Origin: Fidelibacterota bacterium
GTDB lineage: Bacteria > Fidelibacterota > Marinisomatia > Marinisomatales > UBA1611
Length of the DNA stretch: 57,759 nucleotides
Direction: 5' to 3'
Assembly: GCA_018692355.1 (NCBI GenBank)
Contig: JABHKE010000023.1
Span: 1 to 57,759 of the forward strand
Shown: positions 27,294-30,725 of the stretch, piece by piece
Position numbering within the stretch: the stretch's first letter is position 1
Layout: each line of letters begins with the position of its first letter
Translations under genes and position numbers: made by a program
The notes under the pieces: generated by a model
Database searches by the model: none
Seen by the model: only the letters and a program-made list of their open reading frames with translations
What the model was told of the DNA's origin: nothing

Positions 27294-27315
27294 AACATCA
27301 CTATCATCCTTGATC

Positions 27316-27368
27316 GTGGGTATGCGGTTTATAGCCGCATCGAGAGTTCGAATCTCTCCCTCTCCGCA
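27316..27368 (+). pseudogene. tRNA-Ser-derived 3' fragment: anticodon-stem 3' strand, long variable arm, T arm, acceptor 3' strand
   Basis: GTGGG, variable arm ATGCGG-tttatag-CCGCAT, T arm GAGAG-TTCGAAT-CTCTC, CCTCTCC plus discriminator G. No matching GGAGAGG 5' strand, D arm or anticodon loop upstream. Confidence 0.8.
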
Positions 27369-27385
27369 CTTTAATAGACGATAAA

Positions 27386-27407
27386 CCCTGCATAAGCGGG
27401 GTTTTTT
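27386..27407 (+). terminator. Rho-independent terminator-like hairpin after the tRNA fragment
   Basis: CCCTGC-ATAA-GCGGGG stem-loop followed by TTTTTT. Confidence 0.6.
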
Positions 27408-27602
27408 GCTTATAGCCTGAATTAGTCTGGATAGTGGAAAAAAGGGCTGAAATGGACTGAAACCACTGGTAATACACTGGTCATTTAGTTTCAACTAAAA
27501 AGTGGTAAGGTAGATGGCAAGCAAGGCAGGGTAGTGTCGGATAAAAAGGTTGACACGCATTCTTGTAGTATTTTTTTTAAAGGATGATGAGTAGATTAGG
27601 AG

Positions 27603-28301
27603 ATGCGTAGATATATTGTTTTACTTTTGATTAAAGGCATTGTGTGGGCACAGACTGATTTTGATAAATTAGTTTTGAAAGATGGTACTACATATTTGGG
27701 AGAATATTCAAAAATTGAAGGAGAGATAGTATATTTTAAACCTCAAAATGCGTTCACTTTCCAACCAATTTCTATTAAACAAATTCAAACACTAGAATTA
27801 AAAGATGGTCATTTTATCATTGTTCGTGGCTATGCAAAAAAAATACCTTTAGCTATTGAAGAATATCAAAAATTAAGTACTAAAGAAAAAGCAATTTATG
27901 ATGCAAAGTCCAAAAATTTGGGTAAGTTGGTTCTTTATGGGCCAACAAGTATTATTGTTTTTTTGGGTAGTATACAATTACATAAAGTTTTAATAGGGGG
28001 TGAATTTTGGGAAAGCCCTATATTTTTAGGAGGTTCTCCAGCGGCCAGTTTGACTATACCTTATTTTGTTTTAAACAGTAAAGAAAAATTTAATTTTCCT
28101 AAATCAATTTTGACTGGTTCTGAAAAAGGCATCTACAAGCAAGCTTATTCTAAAAAACTCCAGGAAAGGAAATTTAAATATGCTGCAGTTTCTACCATTG
28201 TTACTGGAGCAGTTTTAGTAGTTTCCTGGCCTGGTATTGATTGGTCTTCTTCCAGGAGTGGAGGGACAACTGGAAAAGGATTTACCGGACTTGGCCCATA
28301 A
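27603..28301 (+). CDS. Hypothetical secreted/membrane protein, module A (232 aa)
   Basis: Signal-peptide-like N-terminus (MRRYIVLLLIKGIVWA/QTD) and several hydrophobic segments in the C-terminal half. AGGAG sits immediately upstream. The N-terminal ~48 aa are near-identical to module B; the rest is unrelated. Confidence 0.6.
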   Translation: MRRYIVLLLIKGIVWAQTDFDKLVLKDGTTYLGEYSKIEGEIVYFKPQNAFTFQPISIKQIQTLELKDGHFIIVRGYAKKIPLAIEEYQKLSTKEKAIYDAKSKNLGKLVLYGPTSIIVFLGSIQLHKVLIGGEFWESPIFLGGSPAASLTIPYFVLNSKEKFNFPKSILTGSEKGIYKQAYSKKLQERKFKYAAVSTIVTGAVLVVSWPGIDWSSSRSGGTTGKGFTGLGP

Positions 28302-28314
28302 CAATAATTAGCCA

Positions 28315-28399
28315 CAGATTAGTGGGAAGATGGTTCAATTTCCGCTACAGATACACTGGTTGATTACTGGGTCCAGTTGGGAACCAGCCTGCTAAGTGG
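28315..28399 (+). repeat. 85-nt conserved module tail, copy 1 (ends in the anticodon-loop-like CTGCTAAGTGG)
   Basis: Matches 29383-29467 with about 9 substitutions and no indels. Contains ATACACTGGT and a GTGGGA...TTCC(G/A)C hairpin. Confidence 0.85.
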
Positions 28400-28448
28400 G
28401 TATGCGGTTTATAGCCGCATCGAGAGTTCGAATCTCTCCCTCTCCGCA
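28384..28448 (+). pseudogene. tRNA-Ser(GCU)-like partial gene: anticodon stem-loop through acceptor 3' end; no 5' acceptor strand or D arm
   Basis: CCAGC-CTGCTAA-GTGGG (anticodon GCT, one A-G mismatch in the stem), then the same variable arm, T arm and CCTCTCCG as at 27316. No GGAGAGG upstream. Confidence 0.7.
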
Positions 28449-28826
28449 TTTTAATAGACGATAAACCATGCATAAGCGGGGTTTTTTGCTTATAGCCTAA
28501 ATTAGTCTGATTAGTATAAAAAAGGGCTGAATTGGGCTTAAACCACTGGTAATACACTGGCCATTCAGTTTCAACTAAAAAGTGTTAGGGTAGAGGGCAA
28601 GCAAGGTGGGGTAGGGTCGGATAAAAAGGATGACACACATTCTTGTAGTATTTTTTTTAAAGGATGATGTGTAGATTAGGAGATGCATAGATATATAGTT
28701 TTACTTTTGATTACAGGCATTGTGTGGGCACAGACTGATTATGATAAATTAGTTTTGAAAGATGGTACTACATATTTGGGAGAATATATAAAAATTGAAG
28801 GTGAAATAGTATTTTTTAAACCTCTG
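28396..28826 (+). repeat. Direct repeat copy 2 (about 431 bp)
   Basis: See copy 1 at 27316-27746. Confidence 0.9.
28466..28487 (+). terminator. Terminator-like hairpin, copy 2 (weaker stem)
   Basis: CCATGC-ATAA-GCGGGG plus TTTTTT. One stem position is disrupted relative to copy 1. Confidence 0.45.
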
Positions 28827-29390
28827 GAGGGGCTTTATAAGAAAGAAGCATTCGAACCAGTTCCTGTTAAACTCATTAAGAAACTACAATTAAAAGATGG
28901 TCAAATTCTATTTGATGGTAGCAATGTGAAAACATTTGGGTCAGTATATAATGAACAAAAATTATCAGTAAAACAAGCCAAAATGCACTGGTATCAAATT
29001 TCTCCCTTTGAAATATTTTATGTGAGTATCTTAAAAAGACCAGCCAGATGGACAGTAAATAGGGGAAATGGTGGATTGATAGGAGATGAAGAATTTTTTT
29101 TAATAACCGAATCCACTCAAGAACAGATTCTCCTCAAAAATCAGCTTAAGCTTTCAAGGCAACAATTGTTTTTGAGTAGTATATCATTTTTAGTGGGTGG
29201 GTGGATGGCCCTTGCTTCACAACCAGGAAGTGTTTATGGACCTTTAGTTGTCATTATTAGTTCGGGGGTACTTGTGGATAGTAAAATCAATTACTTATAT
29301 CCAGTTATATCATTTGAATCTGCAAAAATTATTGCTGAACAATACAACAAGAACCTTTTATTGAAGAATAATCATCAAGCCCCAGATTAG
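28683..29390 (+). CDS. Hypothetical secreted/membrane protein, module B (235 aa)
   Basis: Same signal peptide and N-terminal domain as module A (MHRYIVLLLITGIVWA/QTD...). Divergent C-terminal part with hydrophobic segments. Stop TAG lies inside the conserved CAGATTAGTGGGA tail. Confidence 0.6.
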   Translation: MHRYIVLLLITGIVWAQTDYDKLVLKDGTTYLGEYIKIEGEIVFFKPLEGLYKKEAFEPVPVKLIKKLQLKDGQILFDGSNVKTFGSVYNEQKLSVKQAKMHWYQISPFEIFYVSILKRPARWTVNRGNGGLIGDEEFFLITESTQEQILLKNQLKLSRQQLFLSSISFLVGGWMALASQPGSVYGPLVVIISSGVLVDSKINYLYPVISFESAKIIAEQYNKNLLLKNNHQAPD

Positions 29391-29467
29391 TGGGATAATG
29401 GTTCAATTTCCACTACAGATACACTGGTTGATTATTAGTTATAGTCGGGAACCAGCCTGCTAAGTGG
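29383..29467 (+). repeat. 85-nt conserved module tail, copy 2, ending in CTGCTAAGTGG and then unique sequence
   Basis: Matches 28315-28399. After GTGG the similarity to the tRNA-derived block stops (taaggtggcctg...). Confidence 0.85.
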
Positions 29468-29614
29468 TAAGGTGGCCTGATTTTGTAATAAAGTTGTGAT
29501 TTTAATAACCATCACTCGTGTAATTCGGATTTAATTATTTACCCGTAGTTTATAACTTAACAATTTTCCCGATTTCCCCCTTAATTCGGGTTCATCTTCT
29601 CTGTAAATTTTCAG

Positions 29615-30725
29615 ATGGAATTATCTGATTTAAAGGAGCAATTTGCAGCAGCAGAATCCAAGGACTCCGAAATACGGAGGTATCTTTGATCTGGATTCCA
29701 GATCAAAAACATTAGTAGTGCTCCGCGAGCAATCTTCCAATCCAGATTTCTGGAATGATAATCAAGGTGCATCTAGCATCCTGAAAAAAATTTCCCGGAT
29801 CGAAAAAGAAATTGCGTTATGGTCAGACCTAACCAGGCGCCATGATGATATGGAGGTGTTATTCGAGTTTGCGGAAGAGGGCGAAACGGGTTTGGATGAA
29901 ATCCAAAATGAGCTGAATCTGTACCAGAAGATCATTGACGATGTTGAAATGAAACTTATTTTAGGCAAACCTGAAGATATTCAAAATGCCATTATGGCGA
30001 TTCACCCGGGTGCCGGTGGAACCGAGAGTCAAGATTGGGCACAAATGCTTTATCGCATGTACAAGCGATGGGCTGAGAAAGAAGATTTTAAAATTGAAAT
30101 TATAGATTTACAGCCAGGGGATGAAGCTGGTATAAAAGATGTAACATTTGAAATAAAAGGTGATTATGCTTTTGGCATGGCAAAAGCTGAAGCAGGTGTG
30201 CATCGCATGGTTCGAATTTCTCCCTTTGATTCTGCTAGCAGGCGCCACACATCATTTGCATCGGTATTTGTTTATCCCGCTGTAGAAGATGACATTGAGG
30301 TGGAAATTAATCCTACGGATCTTCGTATCGATACTTACCGTGCCAGCGGAGCAGGCGGTCAGCATATTAATAAAACAGATTCCGCCGTCCGCATTACGCA
30401 CCATCCAACAGGAATTGTTGCTCAATGCCAGAATGAGAGATCTCAGCATAAAAATAAGAGTCAAGCTATGAAGATTCTGAAAGCTAGGATTTATCAAGTA
30501 GAGCTGGAAAAAGAGAAAGAGAAAAATAAGGATCTGGAAGACCAAAAAATGGATATTGGGTGGGGAAGTCAGATCCGATCCTATGTTTTTCATCCTTATC
30601 AAATGGTAAAAGACCACCGAACCAAAGAAGAAAATGGAAATACCCAATTCGTTATGGATGGTGGTTTAACGCCATTTATTAAAGCATTTTTATTAAGTAC
30701 AATTGGTACTAAAAATAAGGCGTAA
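29615..30725 (+). CDS. prfB: Peptide chain release factor 2, with programmed +1 ribosomal frameshift
   Basis: ATG 29615 opens a 24-codon frame ending ...CGG AGG TAT CTT TGA T (29675-29690). A +1 shift at CTT-T (skip T 29687) joins the 29688-30725 frame. SPF (RISPFDS) and GGQ (SGAGGQHINK) motifs are present, and an SD-like GGAGG lies 3 nt upstream of the CTT. Confidence 0.93.

Follow-up and report, generated by a model that had tools for sequence, protein, structure and literature searches.

Two genes with a common head and different tails between cdaA and prfB of a Fidelibacterota genome: a probable tandem pair of integrase-less gene cassettes

Between the housekeeping genes cdaA and prfB, in a 57,759-nucleotide (nt) stretch of the genome of a marine Fidelibacterota bacterium (Marinimicrobia, SAR406; contig JABHKE010000023.1 of assembly GCA_018692355.1; hereafter the window, to which all unlabelled coordinates refer, every feature being on the forward strand), two adjacent open reading frames (ORFs), ORF-A (27603-28301, 232 amino acids, aa) and ORF-B (28683-29390, 235 aa), encode exported proteins that begin almost identically and end without detectable resemblance. 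The question raised by this locus is how one and the same head came to stand in front of two different tails. We argue below that the block 27316-29467, in which both genes are located, is probably a dimer of two ~1.07-1.08-kb gene cassettes devoid of an integrase gene, each of them an integrated small circle.

The insertion in the cdaA-prfB spacer and the anatomy of its sites

In three genomes of the same genus (G007, G005, and G003) the 2,152-bp block 27316-29467 is absent and cdaA is followed directly by prfB. Alignment of their spacers to the flanks in the window placed the insert boundaries exactly at GTGG; judged from this presence/absence polymorphism with exact boundaries, the block is a precise insertion in the cdaA-prfB spacer. 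The empty site reads ...TCATC CTTGAT(T/A) GTGGT AAGGTCGCC..., the left junction in the window TCATC CTTGATC GTGGG TATGCGG..., and the right junction ...CCAGC CTGCTAA GTGGT AAGGTGGCC. The chromosomal left half of this pseudo-attachment site (27294-27315, from the cdaA stop codon to ...TCATC CTTGATC) aligns with all three genomes, the right half together with the remaining spacer up to prfB (29468-29614) is collinear with the empty sites of G007 and G005, and the attR-like junction, with its chromosomal TAAGGTGGCC..., agrees with the empty sites. Two genomes of other genera (G009 and G010) have a short, unrelated cdaA-prfB spacer. It should be mentioned that the relatives compared are draft metagenome-assembled genomes (MAGs) or single-cell genomes throughout, and that the assembly of this genome (G000) is 86% complete. 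Among the contigs compared (23 contigs read, from an index of 86 blocks), the layout cdaA, 232-aa gene, 235-aa gene, prfB was identical in all six listed places, with 17 further similar ones, so this arrangement is no assembly artefact.

Two of the relatives showed further peculiarities in this region. The contig of G002 stops exactly at ...CATCCTTGAT, which may be a hint of a repeat inserted there too. The spacer of G003 (L028, G003:C7, ~280-480) is otherwise empty but ~150 nt longer, and in this additional stretch the pseudo-site is found once more (ACCATGACCATCCTTGGTCGTGGG); it seems that the site itself was either duplicated or already used in a previous event.

The ends of the inserted units are parts of a transfer RNA (tRNA) gene. 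Two long repeats (27316-27746 and 28396-28826, ~92.5% identity) both open with GTGGGTATGCGGTTTATAGCCGCATCGAGAGTTCGAATCTCTCCCTCTCCG, a 51-nt 3' fragment of tRNA-Ser(GCU), located at the left end of cassette A (27316-27366) and, 100% identical, at the left end of cassette B (28396-28446). The first copy comprises the 3' strand of the anticodon stem (GTGGG), the variable arm, the T arm, the 3' strand of the acceptor stem, and G73, and both fragments are identical to the 3'-terminal 51 nt of the true tRNA-Ser(GCU) gene in this genome (contig C22:16698-16788). Within the window, ARAGORN found no complete tRNA or transfer-messenger RNA (tmRNA), and no Rfam family reached its gathering score; the sole notable Rfam match was RF04351, in antisense (E-values 2e-5 and 5.9e-8 for the first and second copy, respectively), a family which we take to be the antisense of plastid tRNA-Ser. 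A permuted tmRNA was considered and dropped, as the fragment matched the tRNA-Ser on C22; the tmRNA of this genome is situated on C123.

Downstream of each tRNA fragment there follow a hairpin with a T run, resembling an intrinsic terminator as read from the sequence (27383-27407 and 28463-28487), a right-arm (P') repeat CACTGGTAATACACTGG with two CACTGGT motifs 11 nt apart (27464-27480 and 28544-28560), and a promoter-like region with a short leader, TTGACAC ... TAGATTAGGAG ATG (27550-27602 and 28630-28682), the two copies of which are 92-94% identical. The TAGATTAGGAG-region motif recurs upstream of many genes for exported proteins in this genome and genus, which is consistent with a promoter function of 27550-27602. 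The original prediction had spoken of a conserved promoter and leader; both are indeed part of the block, but it opens with the right arm of an attP-like site, i.e., tRNA fragment, terminator, and arm repeats.

The other half of this site is located at the 3' ends of the units, where a second direct repeat of 90 nt was found (28310-28399 and 29378-29467, 89% identity), so the two units (1080 and 1068 nt long) are conserved at both ends. In the middle module, the left-arm (P) region (28310-28383) comprises a degenerate terminator AGATTAGTGGGA and the motif CTACAGATACACTGGT (28345-28360), and is followed, where the two cassettes meet, by an attP-like core that is intact, CCAGC CTGCTAA GTGGG (28384-28400), equivalent to the anticodon stem-loop of tRNA-Ser; the genuine tRNA on C22 has CCCGC CTGCTAA GTGGG at this position. 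The attR-like right end of cassette B (29378-29467) has the P-arm motif at 29413-29428 and the core CCAGC CTGCTAA GTGG at 29452-29467. The attP-like core is therefore flanked by two conserved arm repeats, CTACAGATACACTGGT and CACTGGTAATACACTGG, both of which are confined to the window in this genome. Taken together, each unit has the tRNA-Ser 3' fragment on its left and the anticodon-loop core on its right, and the chromosomal target is a pseudo-site with no tRNA gene.

On C22, the genuine tRNA-Ser is followed by 220 nt with 86% identity to the noncoding repeat of the window (86% over 287 nt), including the terminator hairpin of 27383-27407, the CACTGGT repeats, and the promoter-like region, whereas the next gene encodes a different exported protein. 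The obgE-dprA-tRNA-Ser synteny is kept in the genus, and the content after the tRNA differs in G002 and G006.

The attL-, attP-, and attR-like junctions form a pattern that would be expected if two circles had been integrated one behind the other at a secondary site. In the mechanism that we propose, each circle would hold a single gene with its promoter, preceded by the P arm, the core, the 3' fragment of the tRNA, and the P' arm. A tyrosine integrase supplied in trans would recombine the attP-like site of the cassette with the look-alike TCATC CTTGATN GTGGT in the cdaA-prfB spacer, the overlap region being the 7-nt anticodon loop of the tRNA-Ser(GCU) core. The left junction would then retain the chromosomal loop equivalent and the right junction the CTGCTAA of the cassette, while an intact attP-like core would be left between the two cassettes. 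The 7-nt loops (chromosomal on the left, from the element on the right) may fit a tyrosine recombinase with a 7-bp overlap and a replicated heteroduplex, and a crossover anywhere within GTGG yields the same junction sequence. Both the circular intermediates and the integrase acting on these arms are presumed from the arrangement of the sites.

Some observations on the same elements, and on the gene that follows them, should be added. The 12-mer AAGTGGTAAGGT in the leader of cassette A (27500-27511) is the same as the right junction at 29462-29473 (core AA, GTGG, and chromosomal TAAGGT), and is replaced by AAGTGTTAGGGT in the leader copies of cassette B, C22, and the MAG SI039_bin89 (described below); it may be a coincidence, a core-like site of a secondary kind, or what is left of an earlier recombination event. 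The sequence GATG(T/A/G)GTAGATT(T/A)GG precedes the start codon (ATG) by 2-12 nt in numerous genes, the majority of them encoding proteins with a signal peptide, both in this genome and in related ones (in the window at 27586-27605 and 28666-28685; elsewhere in this genome at C75:1931, C75:2657, C97:480, C150:3428, C71:376, and other sites); its TAGATTTG presumably fits the Bacteroidetes-type -7 promoter element TAnnTTTG, and its location points to mRNAs that are leaderless or very short. A near-identical terminator hairpin, CCCCACATT(A/C)GTGGGG with a T run, is present in 11 copies in this genome (including C22:17636, 18236, and 19737; C28:35363 and 35625; C73:13759 and 14173), and in other genomes it directly precedes the left arm of cassettes (e.g., L035:9570). 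The AGATTAGTGGGA of the window (28316 and 29384) is a degenerate copy of this hairpin, and on C22 it separates successive small genes for exported proteins downstream of the tRNA-Ser, as if the boundaries had collapsed to terminator and leader. The prfB gene has, at 29615-29690, the usual programmed +1 frameshift, i.e., a short upstream frame followed by the ORF from 29643, and is ordinary.

Spread of the module and its association with integrases

The module is not restricted to this locus. Allowing at most one mismatch, CTACAGATACACTGGT was found 44 times, in 21 of the 54 family genomes and in nine of the 15 genera (three occurrences for the reversed control), typically several times per contig, in the same orientation and 1-6 kb apart. 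Thus arrays with the module are present in ~40% of the family genomes; those examined are not located at tRNA genes. Modules of the window and its congener G005 were aligned with those of G011 and G065, which represent two further genera, and the left arm proved invariant in all four (GG..AATT.CC.CTACAGAT.CACTGGT), while the right arm CACTGGTAATACACTGGTCAT was present in six of the seven aligned modules, G005 being without it. At the terminator position, the modules of G011 and G065 have a hairpin of other sequence. The right-arm repeat CACTGGTAATACACTGG recurs in the same orientation seven times in G065:C8, five times in G064:C10, and in other arrays.

The genes bounded by the module are unrelated to each other, as exemplified by G005:C124 and G011:C45. 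In G011 the cargo consists of a methyltransferase and a 408-aa exported protein, and an identical 408-aa protein is encoded in an array of G065, i.e., in another genus. In G053, between a glyoxalase gene and uvrC, it consists of a START-domain protein, an ATP-binding cassette (ABC) transporter, and a hydrolase with DUF805. In marine metagenome contigs, module segments are covered 3-15 times more deeply than the unique tails, and the P arm with the core runs into several different flanks. A lone match to the P' arm in viral contigs, inside a phage tail-fibre gene, was dismissed as chance.

In G065:C8, the array of at least seven co-oriented right arms is accompanied by a gene of a tyrosine recombinase (with Phage_integrase and SAM-like Pfam domains), the first arm being 170 nt downstream of it. 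The arms in this genome are the same as in the window, and the core with the tRNA piece is derived from tRNA-Pro(UGG) (CCTGC TTTGGGA GCAGG ... CACCCCGA). A second such case is the metagenome contig L074, encoding a 387-aa integrase 65% identical to that of G065, followed by a tRNA-Pro piece, the right arm, and then the left arm; the N-terminus of this protein has an apparent arm-type DNA-binding extension. Homologous integrases are encoded in G002 (the genus of the window), G021, G050, G011, and G048, and downstream of every one of these genes there is a piece of a tRNA (Pro or Arg) starting from the anticodon loop, with different direct repeats, of the GGACAC type. This indicates that the integrase family uses anticodon-loop att sites and that one branch of it is associated with CACTGGT arms. 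The GGACAC(A) direct repeats are placed in the 3' coding end of the integrase gene and ~120 nt past the tRNA fragment (L060, 700-1000; L059, 2350-2650; L057, 2350-2650; L058, minus strand, 1300-1560), and they resemble arm-type sites, of which the same integrase family would then have another, distinct set.

Partial tRNA repeats of this kind are the classic scar of elements integrating at tRNA genes, and the two units might accordingly be immobile relics of two conventional tRNA-Ser-integrating islands or prophages, each reduced to one cargo gene. The lack of an integrase in cis, the position fixed in every context listed, and the existence of degenerate modules (G005 without the P' arm, and boundaries on C22 worn down to terminator and leader) would agree with such an origin. 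However, the insertion site is no tRNA gene, neither the two arms nor the core show any loss and all are strongly conserved from genus to genus, and the identical 408-aa cassette protein is found in arrays of two genera. Moreover, the units are uniformly small (1-5 kb, one to three genes) and form co-oriented arrays of at least seven beside an integrase, which is cassette-like rather than the outcome of random decay. We thus regard relics as an unlikely explanation.

Several points weigh against integrated circular cassettes at this locus. The microhomology at the junctions amounts to GTGG only, and judging by the sequence a non-site-specific insertion or deletion would also be compatible with them. 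The dimer is situated at the same place in the six listed contexts and in the 17 further similar ones. No tyrosine or serine recombinase gene was found in or near the insert 27316-29467, and this 86%-complete assembly yielded no homologue of the array integrase at E ≤ 1e-15; its only three tyrosine recombinases are Xer-size, and none of them lies within 24 kb of the cassettes. Among 80 metagenome integrase loci there was no integrase beside a Ser-type core, and the link of the integrase to CACTGGT arms comes from the two Pro-type cases described above. The role of the arm repeats as protein-binding sites is likewise a presumption. Finally, neither an empty site nor a circle joint of this element was found in Logan contigs of eight runs. 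A candidate joint in X25 that "goes back 2147" was rejected, as it belongs to another module and runs into a different terminator.

The constant head and the mosaic tails

The comparison of the two units explains what is shared by ORF-A and ORF-B. By direct count, the 48 codons of the constant heads (27603-27746 and 28683-28826) agree at 133 of 144 bases (92.4%), and the noncoding stretches in front of them (27316-27602 and 28396-28682) at 266 of 287 (92.7%), so the original prediction of near-identical heads preceded by 287 equally conserved nucleotides holds. Since three of the nine codon differences between the heads are synonymous and six non-synonymous, the identity of the heads is to be ascribed to shared ancestry or exchange and not to purifying selection. 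In the global alignment of the units, 93, 89, 94, and 94 identities per 100 columns were counted over 27344-27743, and 62, 58, and then ~50 in the blocks beyond. The drop at 27746/28826 is therefore a step within a few codons with no gradient, as had been claimed.

The further claim that the proteins differ completely beyond a weak echo around L(E/Q)LKDG was borne out for the last ~135 residues only. BLASTP aligned residues 1-103 of the two proteins at 57% identity, and the N-terminal domain (to about residue 100) is, on this alignment, homologous in ORF-A and ORF-B. No homology of the tails was detected, the profile-profile probability of hhalign for the tails alone being 0.85%; a full-length profile match was driven by the head, and remote homology of the tails was rejected on these grounds, in line with the earlier assumption.

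The large families to which these proteins belong (1,392 metagenome relatives of ORF-A and 781 relatives of ORF-B were found) are visibly mosaic. In the ORF-A family, four blocks (signal peptide, the part following LKDG, the part following KEKAIYDA, and the C-terminus) have multi-residue variants, and for any two blocks each variant of one was met with each variant of the other (a four-gamete pattern). The tail of ORF-B was found behind at least four heads (its own, one resembling that of A, a third one distinct from both, and a signal peptide by itself), and the A-type head with at least three tails, in agreement with the suggestion that this head might be found on other tails. In a single-cell genome, the same first 27 residues are joined to yet another architecture, and marine metagenome contigs fork into alternative sequences at 27904/27905. 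The mosaicism of these protein families points to a recombination breakpoint at the cliff. The simplest reading of these patterns is homologous recombination between cassettes sharing the 430-nt left and 90-nt right constant regions, the cliff being one of its breakpoints. In the cassette model, the near-identical 430 nt would represent the constant part (tRNA fragment, terminator, arm repeats, promoter and leader, signal peptide, and first beta-strands), and together with the 90 nt on the right would provide the shared homology by which variable gene segments are reshuffled into many combinations of heads and tails. A shortened copy was also encountered: in the single-cell genome AG-404-J18 (contig 35; L051, 3908-4213), a gene with the A-type head is cut at about residue 101, right after LKLKDGD, and is probably a pseudogene or recombination remnant of the ORF-A family.

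A third context of the head allows the local identity to be put in perspective. At a different place in the chromosome, downstream of proS and recO, the MAG SI039_bin89 has a gene that joins the A-type head to a tail of a third kind; it is preceded by a tRNA-Ser fragment, terminator, right arm, and promoter. This MAG seems to come from another genus, because its tRNA fragment matches the version of G011. The tRNA fragments of A and B are 100% identical, and each is 88% identical to that of SI039; for the terminator region the respective values are 91% (A vs. B), 75% (A vs. SI039), and 72% (B vs. SI039), and for the arm and promoter 91%, 83%, and 88%. The heads, in the same order, are 92.4%, 93.8%, and 88.9% identical, and the sequences after the cliff 59%, 80%, and 63%. 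As the head of SI039 is no less similar to that of ORF-A than the two local heads are to each other, the block of promoter and head is constant across lineages, and not only due to a local conversion of recent date. In contrast, the tRNA piece goes with the tRNA of the respective host, as expected if the cassettes cycle through the host tRNA site. Of the original prediction that recombination or gene conversion acted on the 5' block, the former part is retained, the step being a signature of recombination, while a merely locally homogenised promoter and leader is not what was found.

These values also bear on the possibility that no mobile element is involved and that the locus arose by a local tandem duplication, with a diverging middle and gene conversion keeping the ends alike. 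The units are adjacent, co-oriented, and near-equal in length (1080 and 1068 nt), their N-terminal ~100 residues are homologous, and the tRNA and terminator parts, 100% and 91% identical locally as compared with 88% and 72-75% to SI039_bin89, fit some local homogenisation. On the other hand, a duplication would leave without explanation why the block is missing, with exact boundaries, from the spacer in three congeners, why it opens with a tRNA 3' fragment and closes with an anticodon-loop core, and why the module at its borders is found next to unrelated genes across numerous genomes and genera. The identity of the head to that of SI039_bin89, apparently of another genus, equals the local identity, and the tails have no detectable homology. 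A tandem duplication is therefore strongly disfavoured, and we consider it very improbable.

What the proteins do is a matter of prediction. Both have a signal peptide with n-, h-, and c-regions (MRRYIVLLLIKGIVWA|QT). According to hydropathy, ORF-A contains hydrophobic segments at residues 106-135 and 191-213, and the tail of ORF-B a hydrophobic hairpin at 161-202. AlphaFold2 (AF2), run for ORF-A with an alignment of 23 sequences, gave a predicted local distance difference test (pLDDT) score of 80-86 only for residues 20-80, which are predicted to form a small beta-barrel of ~60 residues, and below 50 for residues 104-232, a value that precludes a comparison of the folds of the tails. In the Foldseek search with the N-terminal domain, the best matches were Hfq/Sm-like barrels, at a non-significant E-value of ~0.02, and Pfam had no match for either protein. 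For ORF-A as well as ORF-B, the unique tail was found in metatranscriptome contigs with 0 mismatches, so the two are probably expressed, a carry-over of DNA also being possible; the RNA contigs are too sparse to define a transcription start. Our guess, from the sequences, is that these may be envelope proteins under diversifying pressure.

Constant heads, variable tails, and a conserved promoter are also hallmarks of polymorphic surface or effector loci, to which the original prediction had likened these genes, alongside cassette exchange. In such a locus (e.g., with orphan modules of the Rhs or contact-dependent inhibition, CDI, type, or with phase-variable proteins), tails would be swapped into an expressed copy and thereby vary its antigenicity or toxicity. 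The large mosaic family with its many head-tail combinations in marine metagenomes would fit, as would the export and the membrane anchoring predicted from hydropathy. Nevertheless, Pfam detected no domain of a toxin or immunity protein, none of the Rhs or CDI type, and no known adhesin, and neither ORF is paired with a small ORF or an immunity-like partner. In place of a C-terminal toxin domain followed by an immunity gene, the tails hold hydrophobic membrane segments. Both genes are complete and have their own promoter-like region, with no silent 5'-truncated orphans and no invertase or shufflon-type sites, and elsewhere the same modules carry enzymes and transporters, i.e., they are not specific to one protein family. 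Hence it was the second half of the earlier analogy that proved apt, in that the locus appears to be a literal cassette system, and a polymorphic locus is improbable.

Comparison with known systems

No paper was found in the literature on these modules in Marinimicrobia, or on how the streamlined SAR406/Marinimicrobia genomes acquire flexible genes. These bacteria are among the most abundant uncultured ones of the dark, oxygen-poor ocean. We put forward, only tentatively, that the modules constitute an undescribed gene-capture system of Marinimicrobia, doing the job of an integron with different parts: small, self-expressed cassettes with duplex attP-like sites (invariant arm repeats around an interchangeable tRNA core, Ser-GCU or Pro-UGG, that runs from the anticodon loop to the 3' end), which a P4/lambda-type integrase would capture, stack, and reshuffle at tRNA genes and look-alike sites, with constant ends anchoring the domain shuffling of a family of exported proteins. 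The locus described here is a clean worked example, with the empty site in relatives and all three types of junction, and the cassette model may account for the mosaicism of a very large family of exported proteins (~1,400 relatives found). If the cassettes are active, they would represent a second cassette-based route of genome plasticity, independent of integrons, and would offer a defined experimental handle, since a single family of integrases and a site of ~250 bp with a choice of two cores would be involved.

Among the described elements, tycheposons integrate site-specifically at tRNA genes, are flanked by partial tRNAs, and accumulate in tandem in flexible islands; their cargo is related to the niche, and both degenerate remnants and junctions with tandem repeats have been described (Hackl et al., bioRxiv 10.1101/2020.12.28.424599). 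By definition they have their own tyrosine or large serine recombinase, usually also replication genes, and they use seven Prochlorococcus tRNA genes (bioRxiv 10.1101/2020.12.28.424599). The tandem accumulation and the cargo are common to both, and the tRNA-Ser pieces at the ends of the units may be a counterpart of the partial tRNA flanks. In contrast, the cassettes of Marinimicrobia are ~1 kb in size, comprise one gene and no integrase, have a full attP-like site with arm repeats, and were inserted here at a pseudo-site other than a tRNA gene.

With integrons and clusters of attC sites lacking integron-integrases (CALINs) they share the small, co-oriented, mostly one-gene cassettes with one recombination site each, the diverse cargo, and the presence of an integrase at the head of some arrays (G065), many others having none nearby. 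The attC site of integrons is a folded single-stranded site (an imperfect palindrome) at the 3' end of promoterless cassettes, recognized by the integrase IntI. Neither IntI with attI and the promoter Pc, nor attC, was found at the locus. Unlike in integrons, the site appears to be an attP-like duplex of ~250 bp with a tRNA-derived core and direct arm repeats, the integrase is P4/lambda-like rather than IntI, co-oriented with the cassettes and followed by a tRNA fragment, and the cassettes have their own promoter-like region and terminators.

A third comparable group is that of the cis-mobilizable elements (CIMEs) which Pavlovic, Bellanger, and others are said to have reported, i.e., att-bounded decay products of integrative and conjugative elements (ICEs) without recombination genes, with a single chromosomal attB and accretion arrays in streptococci; they are reportedly moved by the integrase of a related element and build up in tandem at the att site. 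The attL-, attP-, and attR-like junctions with intact arms, and the single cargo ORF per unit with no recombination or transfer genes, seem to be of the same kind, but the cassettes are uniformly tiny, are distributed over many genera, and combine the same arms with interchangeable tRNA cores (Ser-GCU or Pro-UGG). Judged by their sequences, they would thus miss the defining features of tycheposon-like islands and of integrons and fit CIMEs in a descriptive sense only. They are distinguished by the combination of a uniform small size, a complete attP-like site in each cassette, invariant arms with interchangeable tRNA cores, the use of a pseudo-site, and a constant expression-and-export block that promotes domain shuffling.

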